A DNA stretch of 62,657 bases, filler included, from Sluysia triapertura (lineage: Eukaryota): assembly GCA_046118255.1 (NCBI GenBank). It is 5 parts of 5 records of this genome, joined end to end, with 100 filler letters (N's around TTAATTAATTAA, not from the genome) between each part and the next. Parts side by side here need not be neighbours in the genome. Positions count along the whole stretch, not along the records: positions 1 to 15,016 come from JBJNIA010241546.1; 4 more parts are not named here. One strand, written 5' to 3'. Numbering within the stretch: the first letter of the stretch is position 1; each line of letters starts with the position of its first letter. The notes beneath the pieces are model-generated. The model ran no database searches and was not told the DNA's origin. It worked only from the letters and a program-made list of their open reading frames with translations. This document shows, piece by piece, positions 5,853-50,695 of this stretch. The position numbers were made by a program, and so were the translations under genes.

Positions 5853-6346
5853 TAAATAATAAAAATTCATAAACAATAGGTCAACAACTATAATTTTAAT
5901 AATAACGTTAAATTTTGATTGTAAAATTGTCTATGATTATTAATAGTATGATAGTGGACATATTTGAATTTGTGTTGTGATGTAGTATAACGATTCTTTT
6001 TGTTGTAGGATATATGCGTTATTTGCTGATTTGATACATGTGTTAAATTCATTGAACTTTGTTTAAGATTTTATTTATAATAAATGTGTTGTGTTGTGTT
6101 GATGTTTGTCTATGATCACAGGATTAATATTAATATTTATGAATTTAACAGCCTTATATTGATGAAACGTATTATTATTCCACAAAAATATTTGTTTTGT
6201 AAATAAATTATACAGTGCTGCTTAGAAATTTGCCAATATGTTTCTGTAGCTAACGTTTTAGCATCTATTGTGAATATTGTTCTCATATTTTAATATTAAA
6301 TGTTCAATGTCTAATCACGTTATTAACGATAACGATTACAGATACT

Positions 6347-7180
6347 TTGAAAAAGGATCCGTCAATAGTTATTTTAATAATTTCAGTCACGTTATTCATT
6401 ATCGCAATGTTAATAACTTTGCTAATGATTATGATGTTCATTACGAATAAATGCAATTATACTAATTCTAACTCCAATGATGGTAACACTGATCATTATT
6501 CAATTCCGAGAAATAACAGATTCTATGCTCCTCCTCCAGGACTACCGTTACCACCAATACCATCATCAATATATGAACACGATACAGATATAAGATTACC
6601 AACACATTATAGTGGATTTCTAATATCATCGGTACTACTGTGTATTTGTTTAATAACGACCATAGATTCTCTTGATATAACCAGAAATAAGTTAAATAAG
6701 AAAATATTTTACAATATTATACAAATAACTATTCAAGCTAAAACCGACGTTATAATAGTCGTAGCTAAACAAAGAGAGGAGAAACTAGTTAGTCTATCTA
6801 TAAACTGTTGTTTCAATAAGTTTTGTACTACTTCTTCAACACCAATTAAAGCTTGGTGTTGGGTAGTAGCCTGTGAAGATTTATTCGAATCTCACTTACA
6901 TCAAGTTAAAATAACAATGGAATTAATAAGTAAAGTAATACATACACAATATTATTTGATTGAAACACTACCTTATGTATTTTATGGTGAATTCAGTAAA
7001 CAATGGTTAAACTGTTCAGTAACGGCGCTAGTTAACGAAATTGATTTAATCAAATTAGTTAATCCTTTAGTAAATAACTCAATTATAATAAGATATGGAA
7101 CTGATAAAGAAACTATTGCCGTACTAATTCCACCGAAACATACCACTATATTAAAGTACTATCCTGATTCAATTTTTTAG
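6347..7180 (+). CDS. Accessory ORF X: membrane protein with hydrophobic helices, Pro-rich linker and Cys-rich domain
   Basis: 277-codon open frame; hydrophobic N-terminus, PPPGLPLPPIP, second hydrophobic stretch, CCxxxxC...WxxxCxDL; decayed homolog at 45030-45815 (-). Confidence 0.65.
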   Translation: MKKDPSIVILIISVTLFIIAMLITLLMIMMFITNKCNYTNSNSNDGNTDHYSIPRNNRFYAPPPGLPLPPIPSSIYEHDTDIRLPTHYSGFLISSVLLCICLITTIDSLDITRNKLNKKIFYNIIQITIQAKTDVIIVVAKQREEKLVSLSINCCFNKFCTTSSTPIKAWCWVVACEDLFESHLHQVKITMELISKVIHTQYYLIETLPYVFYGEFSKQWLNCSVTALVNEIDLIKLVNPLVNNSIIIRYGTDKETIAVLIPPKHTTILKYYPDSIF

Positions 7181-7757
7181 CCATATACGCATGGATTCTC
7201 AAAGCTATCGAATCAGTAAAAGCAAACGACTAGTCAATCACAAAACCATATAATTTCATTATACCCATCGTTAAGGAAAATACAACTACTGAAATAGATA
7301 AGAATATATTAAGTCAATACAAGTTAAGGAAACAATAATTAAGAACATAATTAAAATACCAAATAAAATTAATAAAACCAGCTTAATTAATCCTAAAATC
7401 TTCAAACACCATTATGACATTAAAGAATTTAAAATCAACATTCAGCTTTGCATTATCATATTCATACTTTATGCTTCGCTTGCAGTCAATCTTGCGACTG
7501 AAGCCTTAAAAATGTATATAAGGATACTTCGTAGATTGACACATACAATACATATATAGTAAAGTTACGAGTGATCGCTGTCGACGGTTATTTCCTGTCC
7601 AACCGGTCACCTAACTTTGTAAACATTACTGTGTATTGCTTTTCGTAGTTTATAGTACTGTACATATTTAGGTTCATAATCATTTTTACTAATTAATTAA
7701 TTAACTAACTCTAAAATATTATTACTATATTATATTTCATTTTTCTTTTTTTAGAAT

Positions 7758-7890
7758 ATGCATTTTCATCGTTGTCCAATTTGTCAGCACTCTATCCACA
7801 AATCCTTGCTCGCATAAATTCCACTTTAAATGTATTCTTAATCTTTTTCATTTCACTACTACAGATTACATGAACTGACCATTATGCAGA
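7758..7890 (+). pseudogene. RING-H2 finger (E3 ubiquitin ligase-like) remnant
   Basis: MHFHRCPIC, then a frameshift near 7800, then PCSHKFHFKCIL...N*PLCR with TGA at 7876 in place of Cys; preceded by a polypyrimidine-AG acceptor-like site ending at 7754. Confidence 0.7.
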
Positions 7891-7894
7891 ACAC

Positions 7895-8146
7895 TTGCAG
7901 AGGAAATTCATACTTATTATAAAGGCAAAAATACCACATCATCTACATAATCAACATATTGAGGTGCAAGAGGTGGTAATTCATCGTCCAAATCAATTCA
8001 AGAAAAATAATAAACAACATTTAATAACAATACCTCCCTCAAACTATCCTTCTGGTTTGACAAAGTCCCAGAAGCATAACAGGCGCTGTCGTCAAATACG
8101 ACGTCTTTATAAGAGAGCAGGTTATATAAGAAAAACAATTCATTAA
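7895..8146 (+). CDS. Basic/Arg-rich accessory ORF fragment
   Basis: GLTKSQKHNRRCRQIRRLYKR; directly follows the RING remnant and may belong to the same decayed gene. Confidence 0.35.
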   Translation: MQRKFILIIKAKIPHHLHNQHIEVQEVVIHRPNQFKKNNKQHLITIPPSNYPSGLTKSQKHNRRCRQIRRLYKRAGYIRKTIH

Positions 8147-8309
8147 TCCTTTCATCAAGAAGAATCATAATTACAGATATTTTTTTTAAATATATAGGAT
8201 AAAGTAATTAATTAATGTATCATAAATAAAAAATAAACTAACGTTTAAATTATTTTATGTATCAATTTTTTACTTCTTTAAAGTGTACTATTTTGTTTAA
8301 ACTGATCCA

Positions 8310-9009
8310 ATGACTCATCCTCAAGCAAAAATCATAACTAATATCTCATCTTTTTACAATGCAATCGACCGATACTGTGGTCAAAATGACACACTCACTA
8401 CGTTTTTTAATTCTAAAAATACCCCTAATTCTTTGAAATGCGAATTAAATGAAGACTTTATCACACATCTTTTTAAAATAGATAAGTTAGAGGCTCCAAC
8501 GGTATTGAATAATTTACAAGGCTACCCATTAGCCGCCAGGGGTAACCTTAAAATCACACTATTTGTTGATTTTAATCCATTGCAGATTAGAGTTAATAGT
8601 TTTAACTCTTTAACTCAGCGTTTCAGAAAAATGTCGGATTTATGTGGATTCCAACGAACTGCCATCAACTTTCGCCATCCTATTTGCAAAAGAAGAGAAA
8701 TTAAACACCACAAACTATCCTTTGTTATGCGAAACTGACATGGAAAGCCGATATACGTGGGAGGAACGTGTAACTTTTGCACGCACGCCCCACATTTCAA
8801 TAGCAGAGAAAACCGACTTGGTGTTTTTCGCAGTCCAATTGGCACTCGATTTTAAGGACAAACACCAAATCATAAAGGCTTGCATGATGCATTACCACCA
8901 AAAATTCCATTGCACGGAACTTATAAAACCTCGTGTCAGAATTAAAAACTTCCTCCCAATCGATCATCAATTAAGAGGAAAATCTCAAGGAAGCAAAAGA
9001 CATAAGTGA
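8310..9009 (+). pseudogene. Accessory ORF Y (two overlapping frames, probably one frameshifted gene), unknown function
   Basis: ORFs 8310-8738 and 8644-9009 overlap; weak colinear similarity to 44190-44936 (-): [60 protein letters not shown]. Confidence 0.5.
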
Positions 9010-9408
9010 AATAAGAAAATTTTGGGCAGCATCATTTTACAATAAAATTATTGTTTCTTTTTGCCCAAGTTTAATTATCAACACTCTCAAGATTCTATAC
9101 GGTTGGGTGAAAGGTATTGTTAACTTAACCTGCACCAACTTAGTATCATTTAATTCCTTAAATCCGATTAGCAAAACAATAAAAGTTTAACTACTATATT
9201 CGCCACCTCCACGCTCTTTTACATGTGAACAATTGACACGAGATTCTATCTCAATCTTTGACCTACTATCTGCAAAAGAAGTGTCATTTTTACCACCACT
9301 AATACAAAATAAAAATTTGGAAATACTACCTTTTTCTTCTTTGTCTTCTTGTTCTTTTTCTCCCTCTTTTTCAAATACTATCTCTAACATGAACTACACC
9401 AATATTAC

Positions 9409-9678
9409 ATGACCACCTTAAAAAACAAAGACATTAAAAAATCTAAAACCAATTAGGACGACATCAGAACATAAACGAAACAACAGCCCAAACTTCCAAC
9501 AACCGATACAAGTAAAATCAATAGGAAGAGACGCTGTTCCGTCGACTTGGACGATTCTGAAGAAGAATCCCTACAAGCAGATTTTAACCATATTTTCGAC
9601 AACCTCGGCAATTTATTATCAGACAATGAATTCTTCATATACGAGGATGTACAGGACATAATCGATCTAACATTTTGA
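9409..9678 (+). pseudogene. Accessory ORF Z: NLS, acidic region and C-terminal SUMO-interacting motif
   Basis: Single frame from ATG 9409 with two internal stops: ..NRKRRCSVDLDDSEEE..YEDVQDIIDLTF*. Confidence 0.45.
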
Positions 9679-9679
9679 G

Positions 9680-9711
9680 TGGGGACCAATCTTTTGGTGC
9701 CCGGGAGTATT
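9680..9711 (+). promoter_or_regulatory. Candidate polypurine-tract region before a 3' LTR
   Basis: GGGGACC...CGGGAGTA immediately before the TGTGA LTR start. Confidence 0.4.
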
Positions 9712-9714
9712 TGT

Positions 9715-10783
9715 TGTGATTAATCATCAATTTTTTAAATATTATATTGATATTGATTATTTTTAATAGGAAGTTGTGACTAATCATCAATTTTTTATTG
9801 ATTATTTTTAATTTGAATATTGTATTGACAATTTATAAATCATTTGGTTATCATTATTTTGAATTTTAAATTTTATAATTTTCATTATTTTGGATTCTAT
9901 CAAATTTTATATTTTTATTATTGTGGATTTTAGATTTTATTAAATTAATGGATAAAATTTTAATAGTATTTTAATATTTTAATTTTTAATATTTTAATAG
10001 TATTTTAATATTCTAATTTTTTCATTCTAATTTTTGATTTTAATTTTAATTTTAATGTTTTAATTTGCAATATTTTTCAAGGTTAACTCTTAAACTATAT
10101 AAGCAGTCACAATTTTGATTATTTTCACAGACAAAAAAGTTTTTTCAAACAATAAAATTTTACCAAATCTTTAAATTGAAATTCTAACAGTGGTGGAATA
10201 ACTGTGGTGATATTCGACAATTACTTTGTAGAAGATAACAAAATTTTGGCTGTTATAACAGACAATTTTATTTTAACGTTAGATTATTCTTTATAAGGTC
10301 GATATTATACAATATCAGTGAAAAATACACGAAAAATTTATTCATTTAATATTACGATCTTATCATAGATCGATGTAACATTATTTTTAAAATTATCATT
10401 ATATAAAAATAAATTACAAACGTAATTTTTGTAAAATCTTTATGTTTTATTATTTTATATTATTTGATACAATAAAACTTTGTAGAGAGAATACGACTTG
10501 TCTTCTGATATAATCAAAAGGAAAAATAATTTTTTTAACTAAATAATAAAGAATCCTTACAGGATTCCTGCAATATTGTTTTAAGTAAATTAGATAAGTT
10601 AAAAGCAACACTAAATTACTTCCAGAATTTTAGTTAGGGAGTTAAGTAAAGCTTTTATAGCTTTAGTTAAGCATCTTTCCTTTACGTTAAAATCCAACGG
10701 CTGGCCCTCGCTCGTAAGTCCAGTACGTTGGTGAACTCACAAATCTTTATTTTCCTCGCATTACTTTTAATTTTATTCTCACA
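9715..10783 (+). mobile_element. LTR, family A, copy 1
   Basis: Starts TGTGA (start duplicated at 9775), ends TTCTCACA; conserved CCAACGG..GTAAGTCCAGTACGTTGGTGAACTC motif at 10691-10740. Confidence 0.7.
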
Positions 10784-15830: not shown

Positions 15831-16497
15831 TGCGAGAAAGGTATAGAATAAAATAACGATTAGATTAAAAGCTTGAGTCCACCAACGTACTGGACTTACC
15901 TGCTAGGGCTAGCCGTTGGATTTCTATAAGATAAGTGCAAAAATAAAAGTTTGCTTTCTAGAATTAAATTCTAGGTTTTTGAAAACAATAATCAGTGAAA
16001 TTTTAATAGATTTTACGACTATTTAAGTTAAAAAATAATGATCCAAAAATTCATTTATTGAATATAAAAGTGACAAAATAATAATAGAATAAAATATTAC
16101 TTTAATTAACTGTTATTTGTTAATTATATCTAAATTAAATTTATTGCAGACTTTTCCTTGGATCTTTATAAGATCCAAATTGTAATTATATAAGATCCAA
16201 ATTGTAATTATATAAGATCCAAATTGTAATTATATAAGATCCAAATTGTAATTATATAAGATTTTAAGTGTATTTTACTAATGATATTAGATTATATCGA
16301 AAAACTTATAAATAATTAAACTAACGTTACTAAATCAATTGTTATATAAAACTGTCTTTAATCTTGATCCAAAAAAATGCTTCTGATTTATACCAAACCT
16401 TCAATCGGCTACACGAATCTTGTTTTTGGAATAAGAATTTTAAAAAAATTTGTTGTGATGAATAAAATATCAAGGAATTTATTTATCTGAAAAGACA
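15831..16497 (-). mobile_element. LTR, family A, inverted, between gag and env (right end approximate)
   Basis: Inverted motif at 15870-15923; terminus TGCGAGAAAG; contains a 22-bp x4 tandem repeat (16168-16262). Confidence 0.6.
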
Positions 16498-16899
16498 GTA
16501 TTACAAGCAAAGAAAGGAATAGATACAAAAAAATTAAAATTGGATACATATTTTAATAATAGAATCGATTTAGGACTACTGTCATTAGAAAAAGTCTACC
16601 AAGCAATGATAGCTAGAGACTGTCAATTAAACAAAGAAATACTTAGAACCAAATTAGTGGTAGCAATAACCAACCCAGACATAGTAACACCATTACTTCC
16701 TTTAGAAGAAGGAGTCTTTGATAGATTAATGGGTGAGGTTTTATATACTTATAAATGCAAAAAAGTGGAAGTACAAATCAGGCAAGAAAATGAATGTACT
16801 AATGAATTGCCAGTAATATACGAAAATCAAAACACCGGTAACAAGAATAATTAAGCCAACAAATAAATTAAAGCCAAAAACTTTACACTGTTCTAAAGT
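16498..16899 (+). pseudogene. env: Chuvirus-type glycoprotein (env), segment 1
   Basis: DCQLNKEILRTKLVVAITNPD..GEVLYTYKCKKVEVQIRQENECTNELPVIYEN..PVTRII..CSK matches the C.L.K..L...PD / GEV....KC..VEV.IR....C..ELPV pattern of chuviral G. Confidence 0.8.
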
Positions 16900-17239
16900 C
16901 GTGGTGGTACAGCCTCATAGATCACGTACACTACCCTTACTTTAATCAAGAATCACACAAACTTCAGTACAAAAATCACACTAAAATAAAGTACAGTTGT
17001 AATCTTTACATTATTACACCTTTCATCACTAACAAAACATAGACGTATAATAAACTCTAACATTTTTTAATATTCTGTTTATTGATATAGAAGTAACCAT
17101 TGTCGTCACGTCAACACCACTCCTTTAGTATATCCTTTTTATACAGAATTATAGTAAATGATTTATACATCGTGTAATATTTTATATTCAAGATTTATAC
17201 AGTACTTTTGCAAAGACATTTCAAGCAATTTCTTTCTCA

Positions 17240-17690
17240 AACGATCTTTCCTCGCATGTTTGCGTAGAAAATAAATAGTAATTCCTGTTCGCGGTATCAA
17301 CTGTGACCACTTACAATGTTTTGATGCAAACTTATATTTACAAATGAACGAACGTCGTGCTGTTTGGAAGTGTCCACTTTGTGATAATTCAGCAACGTTG
17401 TCAGAATTGTTTGTTGATGAATTTTTTGTACTAATTCTAAAAAATTGAGTACAACGAGGAAGCGACTGAAGTAAACGCAAATTCTGATTGCAGTTTTATA
17501 CCAGTCATTCAAAAAAATAAAGGTAACAGAAAGAGTGACACGTTTAACCTGTGCTTGATCGTGAAGAAACAATGGCTGAAAAGGTGCAAATAGTAATGAA
17601 TCGAAATTAGAATCTGTTATAAGTTTAGATAGTGACGAAGAATCTGAAGATAATGTCGATACGTCTACAAATCAAGAAGACATAGTTATT
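17240..17690 (+). pseudogene. PIAS: PIAS-type SUMO E3 ligase fragment: SP-RING (zf-MIZ) plus SIM/acidic tract, intronless
   Basis: IPVRGINCDHLQCFDANLYLQMNERRAVWKCPLCD..LFVDEFF..IL, then VISLDSDEESED; contains stops. Confidence 0.85.
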
Positions 17691-18246
17691 AAACAAGATT
17701 CAGTGTTAAATGTTTTTAAAATATGATGATATTTTTAATAGCATGTTCAATGTGTTCATTCAATTCTAATTCTATTTCACTTTCAGTATCCCAATTATAA
17801 AAGAGTAATTTTGTTCTAATTATTAACAATTCAATTACATGTGTCACTGTGCGTTGCACAACTCATTTTTATTTTTTGTAAGTTTATGATCTCCGTCTAG
17901 TTTGCAACTTTTCATTAATTTAACATTTATTTCTAATTAAATCTGATGATTATGGAGCTTCCTCGAATTACATATATGTTTAACTAGTTTTGAATTATTT
18001 CCTTAATTTCATTGTTAATGCGTCAGAGTGGACAGAATTTATTCGGAGTACGTTTTCGAGTTAACTCATTTTTGTGCCGTTATTTCATTAATTACGTATT
18101 TATGTATCCTTTCTTGTTTATTTTTACTGATTTTTTAAATGGACCAAAATAAAACGAAGAATCCATAAAAAATGGTTTAGTTTTAATAATTCGAGATAAT
18201 AACAAAGTTTAACTTCGGAATCTATATATCATAAAATTGTCAATAA

Positions 18247-19030
18247 ATGCTCATTTGTGGAATAATCTATAAAAATATGAATTCTTATTGGTACTTTTTC
18301 TCCTTTTTACGTTTTCATTATAAATTTGCGTCAACTCGAATTAAAAACCTAGATTTTTTAAAAAGACAGGATCCTGACCAAAGAAAAGATATGACCAAGC
18401 AAAAAGTTAAAATTAATGAAACTTTAGTCAGTATGAAAGATTTCAAAATTCCTAACTTTGAGTTACCGCATCAAATGAATAATGCTAGTTTGGAAGTATT
18501 ACGTTGTAATGCGACTCGTTCATTCCAAATAACTATGAGTAATTATAAAATATTCATAATATCACCTAATTCAGATCAATCGAATAAAGAACTATTTTTA
18601 AGTCAATTTCCACAAATTGACTTAAATACATTCGAACCATTATTTTCTATGAAGTGTCTGCATGACCATGTTGTTGATGGGATGCAATCGATTATCAAAA
18701 GTTGTAGATCGAGTTGGTCTATTTATTCAAATGATTATTTGTATATATACAAGATTTGAAGTATGAGCAGTGTGATCCAAAAGGCGTATGGAAATTGCGT
18801 GTAGTTGGATACCTAACTGATTGTTTAAATTCAAAATTGCAAACGAAAATGTTAGAAATTCAACGTCAAGTTTATGTATTCATGCAGAATCGTAATGATG
18901 AGTATTCTATTAGACAGGGAATATAGTTTTGGAGATCAACATGGTTTAAGAGTGGATGGAATCTTAGCGCTGGATAAATACACTGGTTTAAGGTTTGGAA
19001 CTTGTCTTGATGAATTGCTGCAGGCAATGA
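18247..19030 (+). pseudogene. Second cargo ORF, unknown (weak Ulp1/C48-like resemblance)
   Basis: 170-aa open frame continuing in shifted frames; LFSMKCLHDHVVDG and a later IHWF. Confidence 0.3.
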
Positions 19031-19321
19031 CGTGAGACGAACCTACAATAAATTTTTATTACGGAATATTTGTTAAACCTATTTACAATTTTATTTAGTG
19101 TATCAACAATGACTACCATTTTATGTAATAAAATCAATCGGTGTTATTTTTATTTTGTTCACCCTCTAAGACAAATACTAAGTATCTTTAAGTGCCTTAA
19201 GCACAAAATTGTTAATGAAGATTGTCTATACAATCAAGATTTTAAATGCAATGAGAAATTTTATGATCTTTTTAAGAGTTTTTTGAATTTTAATAATAAA
19301 AATATTAAACATTACAAAAAA

Positions 19322-19789
19322 CATGGCTCCAGAATATAAAATCGATGATAATCTTATAGATATCTTTACCACACAGAAGTCATGTTAAAACTCCAGAAAT
19401 TATAGGTTTGGCCGAATTAGAAACAAAGTTAAAATTTTAAGCTACAAAAAATATTCCAAGATCAGGAATTTTTTCTAATGAAGATATACAAGCAACTTGG
19501 CATGAAATATTATTCCCTATTAAGAGATCAAAAGTACTCACAGATATAGTCGATAAGGCAATTACAGAAAAAGATGGTAAGGTCAATTTTGAATTATTAT
19601 TAGGACTTGATCATTTCAAGAAAGCGTCACATAATACTTTAAAACAACTATGGGGAAACTTTTTAGTAATAGGTCAAACTTTTTCAAGATTAATAGTTAT
19701 ATATGTAATAATTAAAGTCACTGCTCTTATAATATCTCAAATATTTTCAGTAGTAGGTATTTATAAAATATCGAGATTTACATGGAAAT
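19322..19789 (+). pseudogene. env: Chuvirus-type glycoprotein (env), segment 2 with C-terminal hydrophobic anchors
   Basis: MAPEYKI..SGIFSNEDIQATWHEILFPIKRSKVLTDIV..LWGNFLVIGQTFSRLIVIYVII..GIYKISRFTWK. Confidence 0.85.
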
Positions 19790-20792
19790 TGTGAGAACAC
19801 TAAATCTTTGACTAAATTTTTTGATTATAATTTTTTATGTGTCTTATTTTATTTATTATTTTATTATTGAATTTTATATTTTATCATTCATTTATTTTAA
19901 ATCTCATATTAATTATTATAAAGATATTTTATAAATTAAATAAATTAAAATTTTATTAAAGTTTTAAAATTATAAATATTTTATTTTAAAAAATTAAATT
20001 CTTAAAGAAATTAAAATTTTAAAATTATAGATATTTTTATTTTATTAAAATTATTAATATTTTTATTTTGTTTAAAATAATCAAATTGAATATATGAATA
20101 TGAAATAAACGAATATGGCGGCTATAAATTTAGTATAGAAATGCTGAATTTTTAGCAGCCATATTAACAAGAAAACATTTTTAATCATCGAAAATTAAAA
20201 TACCAGAAGATATTGCAGTTTATGTTCCATGAAAGTAAGATTGTTTTCTTGTGTTTTTGAAATTCTTACTGTAACTAGGAAAACTTAAAATATTTAAACT
20301 ATAGTTTTGTTTTCCATCTTAGACCTTAATAAGGCTAAGTTAATTTTATCGATAAAATCACAATTCGCTAAATTTCATTTAAGCGGTAAAATCATTATTA
20401 TTATACATTAAATTTTGTTAAGTTATTGTTTAATTGTTATATTAATTTAACTTGTATACTATTGTAGTAAAAATATACCGTACGTTCTTGTTTCATGTAT
20501 TTTATTTTTAAAAATCATTTGTAATTTCACTAGACCATAAAAAGGCTAGCTTAACCTTTAAAATACATAATACTTTTGTTAGACAGTAAAAAGGTTAACT
20601 TAAAATATAATTTTAATTCGAATGTATTTGTCATAAATAAATATTACTTGATCGATCTTAAAAGTCCTACAAACCCCTACGTGACTAAATTTTAAAGCCT
20701 TCGTTCAGATTTAAGTTGTATTTATTAGGTGAACTAACCTCCAGAATCTTTTTGAAAGCACAAGTTAAGCTTTCTTAAATAAAACACTTGCA
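19790..20792 (+). mobile_element. Solo LTR, family B (1003 bp), 4-bp TSD AAAT
   Basis: TGTGAG...CTTGCA; AAAT at 19786-89 and 20793-96; excision restores WKLLIGCFPF, matching uninterrupted [10 protein letters not shown] at 48123-48094 (-). Confidence 0.9.
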
Positions 20793-20940
20793 AAATTATT
20801 AATTGGCTGTTTTCCATTTGTAGCTAAATTTCTATTACATCAGCACGCTCATGTTCAATTAAATTCTTTAAAAAAGAAAAGAAATTGAAGAAATAGCGTT
20901 ACAAACAATTAATATTGAACAAGTTAATGATGAAAAAGAA
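20793..20940 (+). pseudogene. env: env C-terminal tail / linker to protease
   Basis: KLLIGCFPFVAKFLLHQHAHVQLNSLK then EIEEIALQ, homologous to copy 2. Confidence 0.7.
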
Positions 20941-23569
20941 AACTTATATCAACCTCAAAGAAATCTAGTTTATATAATATGTGCGAATAATAATTACAAC
21001 AGTGCAAAAAGACCAATGGTAGATATGAGAGTAAATGGAAAAATATTATCTGCACTAGTAAATACAGGAGCTGTAGCCTCTTTAATAAGTGAATAATTGT
21101 TAACTACTAAACATCTTAAGAATTTAGCCAAACATTTATATGTCAGAGAAGTAACTGCTGATGAAATTAAAATATTTGGAGTATTAAAAATAAAATGTGA
21201 AATTGGACAAAATAAAATTGAAATAAAATATAGAGTTATGAGAAAATATTCAGAAGATATGATATTAGGCATAGATGTATTGTCACAATTAAAAGAGGTC
21301 TCATTAGATTTTAGCAAAGCCATACTGATAGACCAATAGATGACGATGATGTTATATTAGATGGCTACTCAGTAGAACTGAATGTATAATACCAAGTAAA
21401 ACGAATAGTTTAAGAAATGGCCCAATAATGTTCATTTCTTCGAAAAATAACCAAGAGAAATTAAACATAGGAATAGCACACTCAATTTGTAGGATCAGTG
21501 ACGGAAATATACCAATAAGGATAATAAATTATACAGATGAAAATAAATGGTCGTACAAAGGAACAAAACTAGAAGAAATAGTCAATTATAAATTACAAAC
21601 ACAAATAAATATGGATAAACCAAGAAATAAGAATATTAAGTTACAAATGGATATAAATTCGGAAGATGAAGAAGATTATGAAGAAATACAAATAAAGGAT
21701 AAGAATTTAACCGAACAGCAGAAAGAAACATTATATAAAGTCATTTATAGATATTCTTGGGCTGTTGCAAGAAATAAATATGATAGAGGAGATTCCTTAA
21801 TAATAAAACGCGAAATTCCACTAATTGAAGATAAAATGATAAGAAAGAAACCATATTGAATTCCATTGTGTAATCAGCAAGAAATGAAAGATCAAAGAGA
21901 TACAATAAAAAAGGCTGGAGTTATTATACCAAGTTTTTCTCCATTTTCATCGCCAGTATTATTAGTAGAGACAAAAGGATGGAACTATGAGATTTTGCAT
22001 TGATTGTTAAATAAAATAACAAGAAAGATGTATTTTCATTACCAAGAATAGATGAAATGTTGAATAAATTAAAGAATGGTAAATATTTTACAATTTTGGA
22101 TCTTCAAAGTAGATATTGGCAAATAGAGATAGAAGAGAAGGATAAACATAAAACAGCTTTTTCTTGAGGAGATGAATTGTAGGAGTGTGAAAAAATGCCG
22201 TTCGGATTAACAGGAGCACCAGCAACATTTCAAAGATGTATGAACATTGTATTATCTCGATGTAAAAATGTAAGGGTCTATATTGATGATATAATAATAT
22301 TTTCAAAAATTTTTGATACTCATGTAGTAGATATTGATATAACAATGAAAAGATTAGAAGTAGCAAGATTGAAAATTAAACCCACCGAATTTGTACGGGT
22401 AGAAGAACAAGTGTAATATTTAGGTCATATAGTTTCACATGAATGTATAAAGCCAAATCCAAAAAATATAAAAAAAGATGTAAAGTTTCCACCGCCAGAC
22501 AGTGTAAAGAATGTTCAAAACTTTTTAGGACTAGCAAATTATTACAGAAGATATGTAAAAGATTTTGCTAAAATAGTTCGACCTTTAAGAATGTTGACAC
22601 AAAAGAATGTAACATTTAAATGGACTGAAAGTTTTTATCGAATTAGAGAAAAATTTAACAACTGCCCCAATATTATTGTTTTCAGATATGAGCAAACCGT
22701 TCATTTTGACAACGCACGCTAGTAATTTTGCGATAGGAGCAATCCTGGAACAAAGAAATAAAGAAAATTTAGAAGGAGTAATAGCATATGAAGATTAAAT
22801 AAAGCTGAAATGAACTACTCTACAATAGAAAAAGAATGATTAGAAATAGCATATGTATGTAAATTATTCAGACACTATCTATTAGGACAAAAGGTATTTT
22901 TACATACAGATCATAAATCACTGACATATTTATATAACCATAAAGATGAAGTAAGTCGATTGAACAGATGGTTCACAAATCTGGGAGAATTTGACTTATA
23001 AATAATATATAAACCAGGGTCAATTAACAATGGTGCTGATTATATGTCTCGACTAACAAATACAGATGATAAAGCGAATTTCGGGTAAAATAGAAGAACC
23101 ATAGGAAATAATAAAACATCAGAGTGAAGATAAAGAAATGTCTTATGCATTTAAAGTGATAGATAAATGAAGAACAAGCTAAAAAGTTTCAATAACTGAT
23201 GAAATATTACGTTTCAAAGATTCAAAAGATGAATGGTAAACCATCGTACCTAAGTCATTAATAACTCCATTATTAATACAATACCACGATGGACAATTAG
23301 AAGAACACCTGTCAACAAGAAAAACATCACGAATTGAAAATAAATTTTATTGGGATAACACGGAAGAAGATATAAAGATTGGTGTACGTATTGTACTATT
23401 TGTTTGCAGAAGAAAGAATACAGGAACAAAAACAAAAGTACCACTAAAACCAATGATTATGCCTTTATCATCAATGGAATTCACAGCGATGGATATCACG
23501 GGACCACAAAATGACCTGAAGTTTATCCGATACCAAATCAGAAACAAGAAACTGTAGAAAAAATAATAT
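20941..23569 (+). pseudogene. pol: pol: aspartic protease, RT, RNase H, integrase (truncated)
   Basis: ALVNTGA; SPFSSPVLLV; LPRIDEML..LDLQSRYWQ..KHKTAF; MPFGLTGAPATFQR; VYIDDII; ASNFAIGAILEQ; NYSTIEKE; TDHKSL; ADYMSR; CTIC; AMDITGP. Many stops and frameshifts. Confidence 0.95.
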
Positions 23570-24540
23570 TGTGGGTGATTTTAAAAGATAAGACTCTTAT
23601 AGAATAAAATAGAATTTTAACGTGAGTCCAGTTAGGGCTAACCGTTGGATTTATGGAGAAAGGATTTGTTAAGTAAAGGTGGAATAACTTTCTCAAGTGT
23701 AAATTTAATAAGATGCTCTTACTTTAATTTCAGAACTTAAATGCTTATAGCCAAATCTGTTAATTTCTGGAGGTATTTTAATAAATGGGAGTCAGTGCAA
23801 GCTGTAGATAATTTATGAAGTGAAATTTAATATTTTATTAAATGAAAAATATTATTAAGAGTAGTTTACGTAGATCCTATGAAAAGGATCTGTAATAATT
23901 GATTTTGCGATATTAGAATTAAATTCTAATAGGAGAAATCTCTTCTTTAGTTTGAATTTTATATTTGAAACTCTAAAAGGTATCGTCAATCAAAATTAAC
24001 AACTAAGTTTTTTAATAATCTATTAACAAAAATTATAATGTTTACAAAGGATATTATAATATAAGAATAAGTTTAATCGTATTTTACGCAAGAACCGATA
24101 AATGGTTCCCAATTCGTTACAAAAATAAATTTAAATATATTTTACGTATGATACCTTTCAGGTATCCAAGCCTTAACAAAATAAACTAACTCAAAATTAT
24201 TTCGAAAAGAAAAACTGCTGCAATCTGGCCAAGGATAAATATCAAAAATATCTTCTGTCTTGAATGGCGTTAAAAAATAATGTATTGAAAATTGTGTGAC
24301 TTATGCATTTTACGTTGCTTATGTATAATTTATCTGACCTTGGCCAGATTAAAACAAAAATATTTATTATCAAAATAATTTAAAAGATATTTAAATTTAA
24401 TATCAAAGCTTACCTAAATTAGTTTTTTCAAAAAATTTAACAATATTTAATTTAATTACAAAATATTTATTAATTTAATTACAAAATATTAAAATTTACT
24501 TACATTTTATTAATTTAAATCCAAGGAATTATAAACAAAT
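23570..24540 (-). mobile_element. LTR, family A, inverted, truncating integrase (right end approximate)
   Basis: Inverted, internally deleted motif at 23621-23652; CTGACCTTGGCCAGA at 24333 matches 39219 inverted. Confidence 0.65.
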
Positions 24541-41760: not shown

Positions 41761-44700
41761 GTTTCGTCTTTTCAAAATATGCAACAACTGGTGATGCATC
41801 TAAAAGGTTATTTTATTATTTTTGCATTATTTTCTGATAGATTCAGGATATATCAAGTCTGATAAAGTTGTTGAAACAATGTTATCAATTGATCGAAAAC
41901 ACTTTATACAAAATAATCCTTATCAAGATTCACCACAATTTATTGGTTTTGGAGTAACTATTAGCGCTCCGCATATGGTTCGTGTTGTATTTATAATTCA
42001 AATTTTGAAAATAACTATAAATATAATTTAATACTTTTGTTTAGCATGCTACAGCCTTGGAACAACTAGCACCAAAACTTGTACCAGGTGCACGTATACT
42101 TGATGTGGGTTCAGGTAGTGGATATTTAACAGCTTGTTTTGCAAAAATGGTTCGTACGTTTTTAAATGTTCTAATGGAAAGTTTTATTATATAATATGAC
42201 CATAAATACTTACTGTATTCTTTAATTAATCAAGAAAGATGTAGTGATTATTTTGTTTAATATTTACTTTTTTTGAATTGTTACATAAAAAATTTAAAAG
42301 TTATCTGACTGTAAATTGTTAAGTGCACTGAAATTTGAATTTAAATATAATCCAATCTATTGCAATAATAAGTCAAATCTAAAACAATAACTTATTTATT
42401 ATAAATACTGTGCTTCTAAATTAACGTTTTGGTCAAATCACAAGAAAAATACTTATTCATTAGTATTCTAGATATTTAACAGCAATAATTGAAAGTAATT
42501 TTCCAAACAAGTGTCATTTAGTATTTTCGTACAACTATGAATTGATTTTTTTAGTAAAAACACTTCCCGTACTTCGTCTTTTGATGATATTAAATAATGT
42601 TTTCGTATTGTTATCTGTGCTTTCTCCATTGTTCTTCCTATTGCGCTTTGAAGTCTTTGCACTATATTATTAGTACTGGACCTATAAGAACACTGAAAAG
42701 TAATTTGTACTCCATATATGTCGCACACTATTTGGAAATTCTTATTTATAAATACCATAACTATTTTTACCCAAATTTCATTGGACGACTATGCTTAGAA
42801 GATTCTAATTAACTTTGACTGGAGACTTTCTTGATTCAAGTTTCCATATGGGCGTGACTTTCGCTGTCACACAACCTATACATTCGAAATAATATCCTTT
42901 GGGTAATTGAAAATACGAATTCCTAAGAGAACTTTAAATTAAAACGCACCCTCAGAAGTCATTAGTGTAAGCTTAACTGTTGATATTGAAAATCCCTATA
43001 GATACGTCGCCCGTAAGAGTGAAAATCGTCCACTATAGTAGACCATAAGATAATGATGTTATTTTGTAAGTCGAATTTCGTAGGATACAATTGCAAATAT
43101 ATGATTTGGAATGAGTAGTTCATCCAAAGCGCGAAGTAAGCACAAAAGTAAACATAAATACAGAGAAAGTTATCGAGATGTTCACGGTGATTATGATAAT
43201 TAGTAATAATTATGATAATTGTGCAATTAGTTACTGATAGGCGATGTAACCAAAATATCCGGTAATAACTGGAGAAATTCGAACTGCAAACGAAATAATA
43301 ATTACGAATTATTTCAAAATCAATCTCAGGAAAATTGAAGTTCCATTAAAAGTGACACCTGGAGAAAGAGCTAATAATGTTTTGTTTTTAAGTATAATGA
43401 AATTTTTTTATATAAATTAATAAACAGTATGCAAATTCTATTCGTTCTCATTTTTAACTTTAAAGTTTTAATACTGGTATCGTATAAGTAATGAAAAATT
43501 GGAATTTTATGCTGCTCTGTGCAGTTTTAAATCTAAAATTCAATGTATTTATGTGATTAATTTTTTAAATACAAAATATCATATTATACATATTTTGTTT
43601 TAGTTCCTTGATAACGAAGTGTTTGAAAGTAGATAATAAAATGTCATAGATTTTATTCATAAAAATCATAAAGATCCCACTCCAAACGGTAACATATTAC
43701 ATTACAAACAGGAGCACGTCAAGGCGGAGCATTGGCAAGCTCGTTCACAAATAAAGATGGGTTGAAAATATGTATAGCCACACCTACATTCAGTTCGCTT
43801 TTGTAATGATTAGGAGTAGATGCCGAATTAGAAAAGAATAAAGGGTACAATATTTATCAATATTAATATAGAAAGAACGGATGTGGTCAAAAATTTTCGC
43901 CTCATTCTATACAAAATAAAAAAAGAAATGAACATAGAATAATAGATTGTAATAATAAATACATTCTTATTAAGTTAATTGATAATAATTTGTTAATGTT
44001 ATTATGTTATTGTTATATTGAAAATATTTAGAAAAGTGTCACTTAACTATTTTTAAAAAAAGGATTTACAGGTTTAGAAAATTTATCCCTCAAAATATTC
44101 TGTTGCCTATAAAATTTCTTGAGTTGATGTCGTCTGCTATTGCGTTTCTCGGATTTTGTAAGACCGAGTGTTATCATTAAATGCGGTTGTTTTACCAAAG
44201 AATTAATATTGCTTTTTCATGATAAAAAGGAAGACTCACTGATACTCCAGATTCCAACTTATTTAATATGTCAGTGGTTTCTAAAGACAATGTATAAGTA
44301 TAGAAACGGCTAATTTTCTTTCTTTTGAATATTTCGCAATCTTTGAGTATAACACATTGGACAAGAAGGGAATTAAACAAGAAGTACAAGTCACGAAAAC
44401 GAAATGGTGTGCACGCGGACACGCAACCGCACGTTATTTTTAAGTGGCTTTAAGCAAATGGAACGAGCCACGACCTGAGTTCTCATTAAAATTGTTTAGA
44501 CTAAAAAATATAAGATAATAAATGCAAAATACCTAAATTATTAATAAATTGCATATTTAATCATAATAAGGACATTGGAAGTGAAGGTAAACCTATACCT
44601 ACACGCATACAAATAAAAACTACAGATAAAAACTACATAACGAAATAGGTTCATTGGCCGGAGGCCTCGACCCGTAATGAATGGGGCTCAACCACTACAC

Positions 44701-47700
44701 ATGGTCAAGTTTCACCTTTTCTATACTGATATAAAAAGATGAGCCTTTTTACGAATGAATAAGTAAAATTCATGAGTCTGCATGATAAGATTAACTACAA
44801 GTGAAACGGAAAGGACAAGAATGAGAATGTAATTATTTAAAATAAAATCATGTAATATTAAAGAAGAATTGTAGTTAACAGATTTACATTGAATTTCACT
44901 TGGTGTTAGTATTAGTAGTTTCGCTGTGGGATCCATTTATATATTACGTGACATTGTATTTTATTGATATCGACATCCTTATCTATTACTGGTACTCTTA
45001 GATCGTATGCTCTAAGTGTTATATTTCGGTTTTACGTAGTATCCATATCTGTATTATCAACATTCTGGTACTTGGCAAATGAACCAAATTGATTTCCTGA
45101 TTAAGGGAAACTAATCCATACTGTAATCCATCATAAATTTCATGCGCAATAATATTAATAGTGTTTTCTAAGAGATTCTTGACCTGCGCTATGGCGATAA
45201 ATAGTCATTGGTAGTTCTACTGTCACTGAGAATTCCTGAAAAGTAAAAGGTTTCGTCCTAATTTTATATTTTTATATTAATACAATTTTGGAAACATCCA
45301 GTAAATTATATTCGACTTCCAACATAAACTTAACGTAAAACAACTGATATTCATAAAGATCATCACAATATGTTATCCAGTATAAAACGTGTCTAGAAGT
45401 TTGAAATTTGTTTTGACACCAGTTGGGAATACAGCATTGCATTATAACATTCAATAAATAGTATCATAAATGTCTCTTTGTTGAGCATCCTTTGGTATTA
45501 ATTCCTTTGCATGAAAATTGAAAGAAACAGAACCTCCACAATACATGTAAAACACGTGCATGCCACGCTCTGGCGAGTATGAGCTCTTTTGAACGCTAAT
45601 GATTGTTATTTTCTTACAGTATAATCATATATTGGCGGAGGAATTAACATTCCTGGAGGTGGTGTATAATTAACGTGATGGGGAATCGTACAATGGTCGT
45701 TATCATAATTAGAAGGTAAACAAGGATATTTGCATTTATTTAAAACGAATAGTACAATAATCATTATTACTGTAATGAATGCAATGATGAATGCAATTGT
45801 AACTGTGATCCTTTGGCACCTCTTAGCGAAAAATGTAAACGTTCCGTTCTCCTAGATGGGAAATGAATTTTAGCTATTATAAATTCTTCATTAGCCAAAA
45901 AATCAGAGCATATTACATATGAGTTCACTAAATTAAGTCTTGCAGGTCGAAGACAGATATCGAATATCTTTATACAGAATATCTTTAACTCGAATATCTT
46001 TATGCTGTAACTGGACTTTTATTTCCGTATTTGGATTATAGAAATCGAAATACTCGGATTTGAAAAATTATTACTATCTGGTCATGCATTTCTTTTTGAT
46101 TGTATATGGGCACTCTAAAGGTTTCTTATGATTTTATCTTTTATTAACGGTATTTCATGTTTGATTATAACAGAATCGCCAATATCATTTATTTTTTGCT
46201 ACTACCAATATATTCTGTCTTGTAGTTTTTTATTTGTAATCTGGATTTCTCCACTCTCCTCATCGTCTATCTCTCGTTTTATAGCATTAATTTTGCTTTT
46301 ACTTAAAACAGTGTTTATTTGTATTTCAAAAGTATAATTTACGATTTCCCAATTTTAAACCTGTATATAACCAATTATCATCATTGGTGTTCTACCTTCA
46401 CATATGTTACATACTGAATCTGCTATGCCAATGTCCATTTTTTTCCTGATTTGATTCCGAAGCTATGAACATTATCCTACTAGTTCGTAGACTAATGTAT
46501 TCATTTCTACATATTGGTTCGTCTAAAAATTAATTGTTACAGTGTATAGTTATTTTGAGTAGCTATACATCAATCTTGCCTTATCAAAATCCAATACTAC
46601 CCCCATAAGTTTTGACAAAATGTCCATTCTCATTATCATATAATCTTGTAGTTTCGTATTGTAATGGCCGGGTTAATTTGGAATTTACATTATAAAAAAC
46701 AATATTACTGATTATGGACTTAAGGTCCGTTCTAAATTTTAAGTATTTGATAACGTGAAAATGATATCTTTCATTACAAATAAATTCTCGAGAATTATAA
46801 TCGATAAAAAACGGCTTAAGGCCTTTCTTATTACTTTTATTTACAAAATTAAAATCATTAAAAATTGGCTTAAGGCCTTTCCTCAAAACAGTACAAAATT
46901 CAAAATAAAAGCAAAAATAAAACTCCACTTCATATTTTAAATCAAATAAAAACAATATAACTTCGTGGATACATAATTGTTCAACATTGAATTCAACCTA
47001 TCATTGAACCTGTTCAAATGTGTCTGCATTGAGAATTCTAGTATAACGTTCGAGGATGCACGAAAAAAATTAATTTGTAACATATCTCCGAGTGATTTAT
47101 TGCAACTACCAAATGTTTTGAAAATTTTTAAAATGTATAAAAATCTTTGAAAACTAATAAATTTTGAAATGTACATAAATTTTATATTAAACGTTATCTG
47201 GTTTTTAATTGGCCAAAAAATATCAGCAAATAATAAATGGATATTTGTACATGCAAGGATAGTTTCTTCTGGTTTCCTATTTGAACTCAAACACTGTTAC
47301 ATGCTTTATGTGTGCTTCGAATTTTAGATATATTGTGAAATATTCAAAGGCTTCCGAAAACACGTCTAAAGCTTCTGATCTTCTAGTGGATCTTGAAATA
47401 ACGTAGGAAAACAAAACCAAAAAATAGAATACCAAGTTTGAGTGTTATCGCAGGTTATGTTAATGCGAATGAGAGAGGCGACATTAGAGAACCAACAGTG
47501 CAATTAATTATCATAGTTTATATATTTATAATTCTATTTTAGATCTTATAGTCTGTATAGAATGTGGAAAGGTTATGATGTCTACGGAATATTTGTAGGT
47601 GAATTTGATGTAAATTTATGAATGTCTATGACACTATACGTATGACTCGTAATTTGATATCAAATTTATTTTGACTGAGTTCACAGTGAACCTTCATTAT

Positions 47701-50695
47701 TCCTATATTTATGTATAGCGTCTCCCATAACTTTTGTGAGGTGAGATAAATGGTAAGCAAGTCCTTTTAAGAGAGGCTTCATATATTAATGAAGCTACGG
47801 CTCCTGTGTCTATCAAAGCCGTAACTTCTCTTCCATTTATTCTTATATCAACCATTGATCTTTTTGCTCCATTGAAATTATTATTAGCTCAAATCACATA
47901 CACTACGTTTTGAGGGGGTGATATCGGAGAAGTAGAATATAATGGTTCCTTGGTTCCATCTTTTCCATCTACTGTGTTTTTGATTTTTCTATTTTTTGTG
48001 ATTTTGTATTTCTATATTCTCCACTTGTTGTCTTTCTTTCCTTAAGGTATTTATTTGCGAATTCGCATGATGATGTAGCAAATATTTTTCTAAAAATGGA
48101 AAACAACCAATTATTAACCTCCAAGTGAATCCTGAAATCTTATAAATCCCAACTACATACTTGGGAAATTATTATGCAGATACTGTTTAAACCTGAAAAA
48201 GCCTGAATAGGAAACTACCCAAAATGTGTCTTAGTGTATTTTATGCAGCCTTCTTAAAGTGATCCGGTCCTAACAATAATATAAAAGTTCCAATTCTGGT
48301 GCCAAATTTGTTAAATGTCTTTTCTTTTTTACTTAAATATGCAAATGTATAATAATGGGTTTCACGGTTTACTCTAGATGCAACGTTTGTCAATAAGAAT
48401 CAAAAGAAAAATATTACTTTCTCATGAGGATCTCTGCTATAATTAATACTTAATCATCAAAGAATTCTTTCAATCTAAATGTATACTCAATTATATTTTT
48501 AATATTCCTCTATAAGTTTATGTAAATTTATTTATTTCAAACTTTGTGGAAATTAAATTATTAACTCAGTAAAATTAATCAACAATTATTCAATCTTTTT
48601 AATTTTATCGGGCAGTTGTTAAAATTCTTTCTTTATTCAGTGCTGAACTATGTACTTTAATATTGAGTCTTCACCTTTCTACTTTCATTTCGCTATAAAT
48701 TTATCGGATTCAAATCTAGCAATAAAATCAACATCATCTATCTCATGATTGCAGCTTATCGCTATTACCTACCTTAGACTCTTCAATTTAATATTACTCT
48801 GATTAATTCCTCAAGCGCAAAATATTTAAAACGGGCTCGCGTACTGTCCACGTCTTATAGCAGGTGTGTTTGTTACCTTAACTCTTGCTTTAATCAAGAG
48901 TCAAAAGTGAAAATACGCAAATACAATAATTAATATTTTTAGAAAAGGTTTATGCATAGAAGTGAATGAAACACAAAAAAGCAAAATACAAATAAAATAA
49001 TTTAAATCAGAGACTTTGAATCTTAATAAATTTTAATAAGTTAAAAAAAGTATCTGTTGAAAATAATCAATAAATACAAGTAATATTAGAAAATTCGAAA
49101 ACTTAGATCACAAAATCCCGCAAAGAAGACTGTCTTTTATAATTAGTTTAATACTTCGTTTTTTGTATAATTTATTTATATTATTTGTTCAACAATATTA
49201 TATTATTTGTCTCTAATTCAATTCCGTTGTTGTCTTTTGACACACTGCCTTTGAAAACTTGTCATAATTATACGGTATTTTTGTACAAATTCACTGAGTA
49301 TTTATAGTCAGTTTATTTACCCAATCATTTTCTGTGAAATATTCTTCTTGAAATCAAAATTATTACACTTTCTTACGACTAATATTTTATATTTACAGCT
49401 TATTATCATTATTAATAATTTATAAATTATTATTTGAAGTTATTATCTCAATCCTAATACTGTATCATCACATTTGTAGGGAATTCATCACACAAAATTC
49501 AATAATGATAATTTAACAAAATGAATAATAATAATTATTAATAACACCAAACTATTTTTTTACTATAAAAGTATCGAGATTAGACATGTACTTTATCATA
49601 AATTCAATATGCAGAATTCAAAAGGAGAACGTCAATTGTTGTACCACTAAGGTTTTTAATAACTTTATTTATACCTTTTCTTTATTATACTTAAAGTTAA
49701 TATAATATTATACTTTGTTTCTGTTGTAAACTCGTTAATTGTTACAGGCATGAAGCCTATTTCTTTAGTAATTTTAAAATTAATACTTAATTCGTTTTTG
49801 ATTGTAAAGTTTTAATTAAATCGTTTAAAATAAATAAAATTGAATTAAGTTTAAGTAATTTTACGCCCTCACACAACATTCATTTATCTTGCCACACCGA
49901 AGGGTACGTCTACATCAATACTTTACGCACTACCAATTCTTCATTCTCAATTTTGATTCAATATCTACAGTAGCTCTTTTGTAATATGTTATCTTTACTT
50001 GGTCAATGTTACATTTATAATGTTCTCAATGTATATGCTAGCTATCTATTTGGTTCTAAAGTTGTTTTCTGGAAAACACTTTTAAAGGCTTTCTCCATAG
50101 GGTAACATTTTTTTCTAATTTGCTCCACACTTGATGAGCTATTCCATTTAAGAACATCGATATCTTATTAGCCAAATTTTTTAAAATTTATTTCTGTGAC
50201 AGTTTTGGCGGCTACCATCATAGATTTTAATAAATTTTAATAAACTTTCATAATGAAAATCAATTATAATTATAATTATAATAACAATAATAATAATAAT
50301 ATTAAATAAATAAAAATGTCTAATACGTTCCAGATTTAATACGATATCCTAGCCAGTCTTATGTGTTATTGTACATTTTATGAGGTAGTAATAGTCACAT
50401 TTAGCAGTCTATATTAATAGTTATTGCTGCACTAATCTCAAATCAATAATTCAAACTCTAAACTATTTTACTTATTTTCTAGGTAGAGCCTAATGGTAAG
50501 GCGGTGGGCATTGATCACATTGATGATTTAGTTTCAAAATCGATATCAAATTGTCAAAAATGTCCTGTTTCTAAGCGTCTTCTTGACAATGAAACGATCA
50601 AATTAGTTACTGGTGATGGACGTAAAGGTTTTGCTGAGATGAGTCCATATGATGGTATACATGTTGGTGCTGGAGCTGAAACTGTTCCATTAGAA
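41761..50695 (+). CDS. PCMT1: Protein-L-isoaspartate O-methyltransferase; exons 41761-41806, 41841-41977, 42045-42149, 50483-50695 (first and last exons not located)
   Basis: [21 protein letters not shown]|[23 protein letters not shown]|[21 protein letters not shown]; in-frame GT-AG junctions. Confidence 0.95.
44190..44936 (-). pseudogene. Homolog of accessory ORF Y
   Basis: Same relative position after the ORF X homolog; short colinear matches to 8310-9009. Confidence 0.35.
45030..45815 (-). pseudogene. Homolog of accessory ORF X
   Basis: [29 protein letters not shown]; LNKETF; [26 protein letters not shown]; EINLVHL..RYG, all colinear with 6347-7180. Confidence 0.8.
46660..47638 (-). mobile_element. 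Family C solo element/LTR (979 bp), 5-bp TSD CGTAT, inserted in the protease of copy 2
   Basis: TGTAATG...CACTATA termini; CGTAT at 46655-59 and 47639-43; removal restores LRVIRNY; internal GGCCTTAAGCC hairpins. Confidence 0.8.

Follow-up and report, generated by a model that had tools for sequence, protein, structure and literature searches.

A decayed gene row in Sluysia triapertura as the probable 3' end of a Burro-like Ty3/gypsy element

We analyzed a row of broken open reading frames (ORFs), here called the cassette, that occurs in two copies in a 62,657-nucleotide stretch of DNA from Sluysia triapertura (assembly GCA_046118255.1; hereafter the window). The region, now decayed, was probably the 3' end of an element of the Ty3/gypsy type, Burro-like, that had a gB-type envelope (env) gene between gag and the protease (PR) and carried three genes in this row. 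Two things can be taken as shown: collinear remnants of the cassette lie in two contigs, in one of them directly behind pol, and ORF Z of the cassette is homologous to exonuclease ORFs that stand behind pol in relatives of the element. All cassette copies in the window are decayed, and judged from sequence the genes are probably three broken into pieces and not five orphans.

The window has a GC content of about 25% and consists of five contigs joined by linkers of 44 N, 12 bases and 44 N (Table 1). Copy 1 of the cassette lies on the contig at 1-15016, an env-pol remnant on the contig at 15117-26790 (contig B), and copy 2 on the minus strand of the contig at 38911-51668. Because linkers separate the contigs, these are three unlinked loci, and neighborhood across the linkers carries no meaning. 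The first-pass annotation had placed ORF X, a RING-H2 ORF, an Arg-rich ORF, ORF Y and ORF Z of copy 1 on one strand, and plus-strand ORFs were indeed found there: X (6254-7180), the Arg-rich ORF (7874-8146), Y (8301-8738), Z (8614-9009) and a further one at 9475-9678, with a RING-like match among them.

Copy 1 was divided into 14 pieces, each of which was aligned to copy 2 in all three minus-strand frames (46100-43600), with shuffled sequences as control. Five pieces matched copy 2, and in the same order: the N-terminus of X (z 20.4), the X ectodomain (z 10.9), ORF W, a small ORF missing from the first-pass annotation (3 of 300 shuffles as good), the Arg-rich tail (z 10.0) and the N-terminus of Y (1 of 300). 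The earlier claim that homologs of X and Y follow the truncated pol of copy 2 in the same order is therefore confirmed for both. The other nine pieces had no match in copy 2; they are three RING pieces (one in the wrong frame), the X signal, the second part of X, the linker, Z, Z3 and the acidic piece. Copy 2 stops within Y. Divergence between the copies differs by codon position: over 189 aligned codons the identity at the three positions was 0.57/0.67/0.44, a contrast equalled in 5 of 500 position-blind simulations. This contrast suggests that both lineages diverged as coding genes and broke only later.

Pieces of env, PR and reverse transcriptase (RT) precede the cassette in copy 2. At the junction between RT and the X homolog (X') there is a short tandem duplication, with no terminal repeat and no motif resembling a long terminal repeat (LTR) or a primer-binding site (PBS), and pol does not resume elsewhere on that contig. 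Given the missing terminal repeat and the missing continuation of pol, an internal deletion fits copy 2 better than a nested insertion. An integrase-core-like fragment (42471-42788, minus strand) was considered as resumed pol; its matching part (42627-42752) hit only P0112 (E 3e-4), and we rejected it because P0112 lies outside the clade of the element. What ties the cassette to this pol, in the link proposed here, is a single junction together with homology. Separately, about 1 kb of foreign sequence lies between PR and RT of copy 2 (46587-46997, minus strand), with a weak Josephin (deubiquitinase) match (E 0.006).

Two positions of X are covered by 30-33 different contigs of run X1, which makes X repetitive. 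No run X1 contig bridges cassette genes, the contigs being short. Over X/W and over 7381-7790 their summed depth greatly exceeded that over Y/Z; this measure cannot rank the genes and was not used.

The family of the element was read from its pol and env. Pol of contig B (20946-23571) has the order PR-RT-RNase H-integrase (IN) and a gypsy-type RT, and the env pieces of this contig match PF24664, the Monjiviricetes fusion glycoprotein. In both copy 2 and contig B the env C-terminus lies directly before the protease; env is in frame within one polyprotein in the relatives P0121 and P0015, whereas the window copies are broken. Relatives were taken from an RT search in which 120 of 978 matches were listed, and metagenome loci are the best 80 of 555, many of them short. 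In a quick tree of 47 rows (the window RT, the metagenome locus L002 and the 45 best of 121 proteins, with Burro itself absent) the window RT, on a long branch, fell into a 13-row clade (SH-aLRT 99) that holds all seven pol proteins extended beyond IN and both proteins fused to a PF24664 env, P0121 and P0015. More than 150 residues follow the integrase-end motif in 6 of the 120 listed RT matches. P0121, a member of this cluster, is an intact gag-env-PR-RT-RNase H-IN polyprotein of 3735 amino acids with a membrane extension after IN. Its gag has no match in the window, and a gag-like remnant before the copy-2 env was seen by eye only; alignment of the pol relatives found nothing in viral contigs. 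By these sequence features the element is a Ty3/gypsy element (Metaviridae) and not a retrovirus proper, as its RT is of the gypsy type and a PF24664 env stands before PR, instead of a class I env 3' of pol. Of the first-pass view of the region, the assignment to the 3' end of a gag-env-pol family with accessory genes has held up as the most likely one, whereas the genes are not all orphans: Z has homologs among DEDD exonucleases and X resembles the post-integrase membrane unit of relatives.

The env of contig B is split by insertions. A fragment of a PIAS-type MIZ/SP-RING finger (PF02891, E 7e-14; 17260-17445, plus strand), followed by an acidic stretch, lies between two env pieces and is a captured host fragment or cargo of the element. 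A repeat of 160-170 nucleotides (nt) occurs twice in opposite orientation (5241-5410 and 16901-17072), one copy interrupting env at 16854. A dispersed family of about 500-600 nt, its members 60-65% alike (13331-13960, 20160-20800, 32010-32680 and 720-830), looks like solo LTRs; one copy splits the env C-terminus. The env insertion also contains an ORF of 170 codons (18247-18759, plus strand), which, like one of 192 codons elsewhere (34745-35320, minus strand), has no Pfam match.

Read with its breaks as residue X, Z matched the ORF at 7268-8743 of the metagenome locus L001 (BLASTP E 2e-6, z 7.7) and, less strongly, the L001 ORF at 9043-10374 (4 of 1000 shuffles as good), while two control ORFs gave no match. 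Against a profile of three relatives' ORFs it scored 17.1 bits (best of 3000 shuffles 8.5), and hhalign aligned it with the DEDD-like ORFs at E 7e-5 and a probability of 63%. Z found no Pfam match and only one irrelevant PDB match, and in a tile search with the DEDD profile its separate pieces reached only E 1-2. The relatives' ORFs are of the DEDDh type, with a His in motif III. L001 9043-10374 matches Pfam RNase_T (E 1.5e-11), and its alignment with L002 5011-6528 includes the catalytic motifs. L001 7268-8743, an intact ORF, aligns to both exonuclease ORFs and has no catalytic motifs. Among the best 80 metagenome loci only L001 and L002 have DEDD-like ORFs behind pol on the same strand, and these two are also the best matches to the window RT. 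Homology of Z extends across motifs I and II, and the acids of D-x-E (motif I) and D (motif II) are absent at the aligned positions. Because its best match, an intact ORF, also has none of these acids, Z is more likely a DEDDh pseudo-nuclease than a product of decay alone.

Y is likely the N-terminal domain of the same exonuclease-like gene. Y overlaps Z, and the relatives' ORFs measure 443-505 amino acids, both of which suggest one gene at 8310-9678; a weak extension of the alignment also points to the joining of Y to Z. On its own, Y had no database match and no similarity to the relatives' ORFs. The acidic piece at the end of the row is likely the tail of this gene or a small separate ORF. 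The relatives' exonuclease ORFs end in similar tails, and although the similarity of the acidic piece to them was not significant (z 0.2 and 1.1), it shares a basic-Cys motif with the L001 tail. It ends in IIDL, which we take to be a SUMO-interaction-type motif.

The first part of the row appears to encode membrane proteins. X has, in order, a transmembrane segment (TM), a Tyr/Pro-rich stretch, a second hydrophobic stretch and a beta-rich region, to which W adds a TM and a basic tail. X likely spans the last part of one membrane protein and the first part of another, and W is likely the anchor of the latter, cut from X by breaks in copy 1. Five of the six extended relatives have after IN a hydrophobic signal-like stretch, a beta-rich ectodomain, a stalk, a TM and a Pro-rich tail; the ectodomain of P0004 is different and shorter. 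X matched the post-IN region of P0002 (BLASTP E 8e-4; z 8.4, 0 of 1000 shuffles), and a profile made from the post-IN regions of five relatives and nothing else placed X tiles at the top two ranks among the 1254 tiles of the window (E 0.004 and 0.025, against 0.4 for the best reversed decoy). A Y-x-PPP motif behind the TM is common to X, X', P0003 and P0121. We consider X probably homologous to the post-integrase membrane unit of the relatives. That X closes the polyprotein is more likely than that it stands as an ORF of its own; we infer that X continues the polyprotein and that X and W are one gene.

Word searches and phmmer against 1.84 billion representatives found no homolog of X, and there was none in viral or metagenome contigs nor, for residues 120-308, in Atlas. 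A model of the X ectodomain from a five-row alignment was all-beta, and its best matches were FN3/Ig-like, yet it is weak (mean pLDDT 52, 57-72 within the domain; Foldseek E >= 0.03, Z <= 6.6). A fold from the single sequence was unusable (pLDDT 42), and X has no Pfam match to fibronectin type III. Single-unit tests of the sequence preceding the first TM gave no significant result, and an extra FN3-like unit there is a by-eye impression only. In P0005, residues 1-270 form a second signal-ectodomain-TM unit, similar to the post-IN units and placed before the protease, so that the unit can evidently move within the polyprotein.

Between W and Y lies the RING-H2 region, whose domain and Arg-rich ORF are likely one gene. 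Read with its breaks as residue X, the broken stretch 7758-7950 matched the whole zf-RING_2 model at E 8e-4 and 20 bits (curated cut-off 27.3), and all RING-like Pfam matches (E 3e-4 to 8e-4) were under the curated cut-off. The Arg-rich tail is the part kept in copy 2; in the corresponding position there a RING remnant can be made out by eye, which was not significant in statistical tests. A RING may not be new for the clade, since the original Burro paper reportedly lists a RING ligase domain in one family.

Expression of the separate genes may involve splicing. The acceptor-like site before the RING start codon has a score reached by 0.1% of the 2033 ATGs in the window (14 or better). Copy 2 has acceptor-like sites at the RING start (44500; score 12; 1.6% of ATGs) and at Y (43906; score 12), the latter running straight into Y-homologous codons, and in one L001 ORF an AG stands directly before the ATG. 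Spliced leaders that have a terminal AUG and serve to resolve polycistrons are described for parasitic flatworms (PMC12582326), so that trans-splicing of the cassette RNAs is a possible route; cis-splicing fits equally.

At the other end of the row, the first-pass annotation had seen a polypurine tract (PPT) followed by a 'family A LTR'. The PPT-like tract stands, and its layout is the same as that of the L002 3' end; the LTR is unconfirmed because the 870 bases behind the tract are not repeated elsewhere in the window. The repeats at 10689 and 11533 are members of another family, short, dispersed and GC-rich in its core, which is found in both orientations at 10689, 11533, 15405, 15923 and about 23600; neither ARAGORN nor, on the first contig, Rfam picked it up. 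An inverted-repeat boundary around copy 1 (4978-5198 versus 9836-10063, 18% GC) was discarded, being of low complexity and not recovered by nhmmer.

Several results weigh against placing this row at the 3' end of the family. There is only one pol-to-cassette junction, and it comes from an assembly of short contigs; no pol was found on the contig of copy 1, and no cassette lies 3' of the contig-B pol on its contig. Z is absent from copy 2, and its comparison with the L002 exonuclease was not significant (150 of 1000 shuffles as good). Tested against seven post-IN targets, X gave one strong match, a weak one to the N-terminal unit of P0005 (7/1000) and five times none; in a hidden Markov model of the unit only (11 trimmed units) it reached E 0.4, the same as decoys, and single-unit tests were not significant for X (23/300) or X' (225/300). 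The fold model of X is weak and was steered partly by the alignment with relatives. No RING-H2 pattern was found in the best 80 of 555 metagenome loci. Only three of nine start sites tested score 12 or more, the other six having 10 or less or no site, and neither Y of copy 1 nor the first accessory ORF of L001 has a YAG acceptor within 30 nt. Finally, nhmmer found no second copy of 9680-10550 in the window, and no PBS is tied to the element.

One alternative is that the cassette comes from the same clade and spreads mainly as a non-autonomous derivative in trans, and is not the regular 3' end of pol-bearing copies. Copy 1 without upstream pol and the heavily deleted copy 2 would agree with this, but gene order and spacing are as in intact autonomous relatives (gaps between cassette genes 164-199 nt; relatives 174-550 nt) and env, PR and RT pieces precede copy 2, so that we regard it as unlikely. 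It is quite improbable that a mobile or gene-capturing unit with no relation to the element makes up the cassette and came to stand behind the copy-2 pol by a nested insertion or an assembly chimera. Nested insertions are many here, including the MIZ finger in env and the weak Josephin-like fragment in copy-2 pol, the junction is single, and the similarity of X to relatives failed two tests; on the other hand X and Z each resemble what the closest relatives carry behind pol, in the same order, the junction has no terminal repeat, pol does not resume, and nhmmer did not recover the weak inverted match around copy 1. That the row consists of ordinary host genes or pseudogenes among repeats is a largely refuted and very remote explanation: acceptor-like sites could be intron ends, and RING-H2 and DEDD are common in host genes, but searches of 5.8 billion and of 1.84 billion proteins gave no host homolog, each copy is broken, X is covered by many contigs, and the best matches are retroelement ORFs.

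For the preferred reading, the decayed 3' end of a Burro-like element, we propose the following mechanism. The polyprotein would run past IN into two tandem type-I membrane proteins, the first with a TM and a Tyr/Pro tail, the second with an internal signal peptide, an FN3-like ectodomain, a TM and a basic tail. Signal peptidase might release them, and they might act in attachment or membrane targeting beside the gB-type fusogen, which is speculative. Two proteins would follow downstream, a RING-H2 protein that carries a basic tail and a catalytically dead DEDDh protein whose tail is basic/acidic. Speculatively, these two could be made from separately spliced RNAs (cis or spliced-leader) via the acceptors, and could counter host silencing, the RING protein as a ubiquitin ligase and the pseudo-nuclease as an RNA-binding factor. 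As for copy 2, it would have arisen by an internal deletion that joined the start of RT to the membrane region. The assignment of X/W as post-integrase membrane proteins, the count of three genes and the placement at the 3' end of this family have moderate support. A bolder version, which we hold to be rather doubtful, is a gypsy-type virus lineage of flatworms that arrived independently at a complex-virus genome: a gB-type fusogen, an FN3-like attachment pair released from the end of the pol polyprotein, and a polycistronic 3' counter-defence block of RING and dead DEDDh with a SUMO-binding-like tail, which would be resolved by host spliced-leader trans-splicing, the leader AUG serving as start codon (Y, copy 2).

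Ty3/gypsy elements with an envelope are usually described as having three genes. The closest relatives found (L001, L002, P0002-P0007, P0012 and P0121; RT identity 52-59%) have a signal peptide, an ectodomain, a TM and a Pro-rich tail after IN. They differ from the window in having one membrane unit with one TM there, not two in tandem. L001 and L002 have the DEDD-like ORFs behind pol, and no RING ORF was seen in any of the relatives. In L001 (3-11517, intact) pol extends beyond IN into additional protease-like domains, into ankyrin repeats and into three ectodomain units; behind it stand a dead and then an active (by motifs) DEDDh ORF, and one more ORF whose ubiquitin/SUMO-like match is weak.

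Among described systems, the Burro/GYPSM1 giant gypsy-like elements of planarians have, like the window, a mononegavirus-type fusion env between gag and protease, and also extra domains, accessory ORFs and ubiquitin-related functions; in Burro env stands in frame between gag and pol, and decayed Burro fragments are reported in Dugesia japonica (PMC6431247). The passages on Burro in that source name no post-IN membrane protein, DEDD exonuclease or pseudo-exonuclease, or free-standing RING-H2 gene 3' of pol. MATH, BIR, BCL2 and ankyrin domains were not found in the window, and the comparison with Burro was made on its published description; Burro sensu stricto (Burro-1 to -4) exceeds 30 kb and has long LTRs, and the window contigs measure 11-15 kb. 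Gene order and env type (PF24664 before PR) are those of the GAG-ENV-POL errantiviruses, of which HSV/gB-type env forms occur in Platyhelminthes, Nematoda and Bryozoa (PMC13524379). In the main text of that source there is no mention of accessory genes, RING, exonuclease or fibronectin, ORFs 3' of pol being outside its subject. The Juno and Vesta elements of bdelloid rotifers carry DEDD-family exonuclease ORFs and small TM proteins 3' of pol, as in the window; their exonucleases are of the DEDDy type with intact catalytic residues and usually form one ORF3 (PMC5408684), whereas the ORFs of the window relatives are of the DEDDh type. The window further differs from them in its multi-gene row, its gB-type env, and the missing catalytic acids of Z and of its intact L001 paralog. 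The piRNA pathway includes two inactive derivatives of DEDD proteins, Maelstrom and EXD1 (PMC5408684). Several accessory genes stand between pol and the 3' LTR in complex retroviruses and foamy-like fish endogenous retroviruses (PMC6431247), as proposed here, probably on spliced RNAs; the window has a Ty3/gypsy RT and a class III-like env upstream of pol, and no homology to retroviral accessory proteins was found in it. The passages of PMC8532177 and PMC13238120 held nothing further on gene content. No paper describing this 3' block was found, nor any pseudo-exonuclease or RING 3' of pol, in the papers searched, a scope that left aside subscription papers, Repbase reports and the original Burro supplement.

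The remaining features of the window concern other sequences. The first contig has a Cys-rich ORF of 218 codons without Pfam match (3160-3813, minus strand), which overlaps a 92-nt duplication (2958/3238) and, on the plus strand, a PBS-like motif (3177-3194) that is presumably of the tRNA-Leu type. Pieces of a tetraspanin gene (PF00335; 40478-41165, minus strand) are probably from a host gene. Broken ORFs at 52176-53500 (plus strand) resemble a hAT-type transposase by eye, three pieces being without Pfam match, and nested, foldback-like inverted repeats lie at 26997-27081/28898-28991 and 28143-28316/28654-28825. ARAGORN found no tRNA gene in the window, and the first contig gave no meaningful Rfam match.

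Table 1. Positions of cassette, env and pol features in the window (strand as in the window; E, E-value)
Feature	Position	Strand	Remarks
ORF X	6254..7180	+	hydropathy, motifs
X, hydrophobic helix; Tyr/Pro-rich stretch with Y-x-PPP	~6386-6442; 6524-6538	+	
X, signal-peptide-like helix; predicted beta-sandwich ectodomain	~6617-6673; ~6707-6967	+	
ORF W, hydrophobic helix and basic tail	7302..7559	+	copy-2 homolog 44921-44739
Polypyrimidine tract and AG, 3 nt before RING start codon	7737..7754	+	score 14 of 15
RING-H2 domain and Arg-rich tail	7758..8146	+	frameshifts, in-frame stop near 7876
ORF Y	8310..8738	+	copy-2 homolog
ORF Z and following frame	8737..9409	+	frameshift near 8974, in-frame stop near 9188
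Basic-then-acidic piece	9409..9678	+	two in-frame stops
PPT-like tract, then TGTTG	9677..9712	+	candidate 3' LTR start
Third locus, unlinked: env pieces split by insertions, then PR, RT, RNase H, part of IN	16462..23571	+	
Env pieces, third locus	16462-16854, 19360-19794, 20793-20882	+	PF24664 E 1e-19, 4e-15
Copy 2: C-terminal part of gB/chuvirus-type env	48019..48330	-	E 8e-12 to P0121 env
Copy 2: remnant of an aspartic protease, immediately behind env	47638..47972	-	
Copy 2: PR-RT linker and RT start, cut off	46067..46646	-	E 3e-16 to contig-B pol
Copy 2: X and W homologs	44739..45851	-	several stops and frameshifts; W homolog 44921-44739
Copy 2: acceptor-like site, degenerate RING remnant (by eye), Arg-rich tail homolog	44088..44515	-	
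Copy 2: acceptor-like site, then directly Y N-terminus homolog	43764..43925	-	cassette end
N linkers	15017-15116, 26791-26890, 38811-38910, 51669-51768		

The layout of the family was already known. The window copies themselves are dead and of value only as evidence; because L001, L002 and P0121 are intact natural relatives, each of the proteins can be tested. If the reading is true, a flatworm gag-env-pol clade would carry behind pol a variable row of accessory genes, made up of surface proteins, active or dead exonucleases, and a RING or ubiquitin-like ORF. These would be candidates for how abundant elements move between cells and resist piRNA and dsRNA defences in planarian stem cells.

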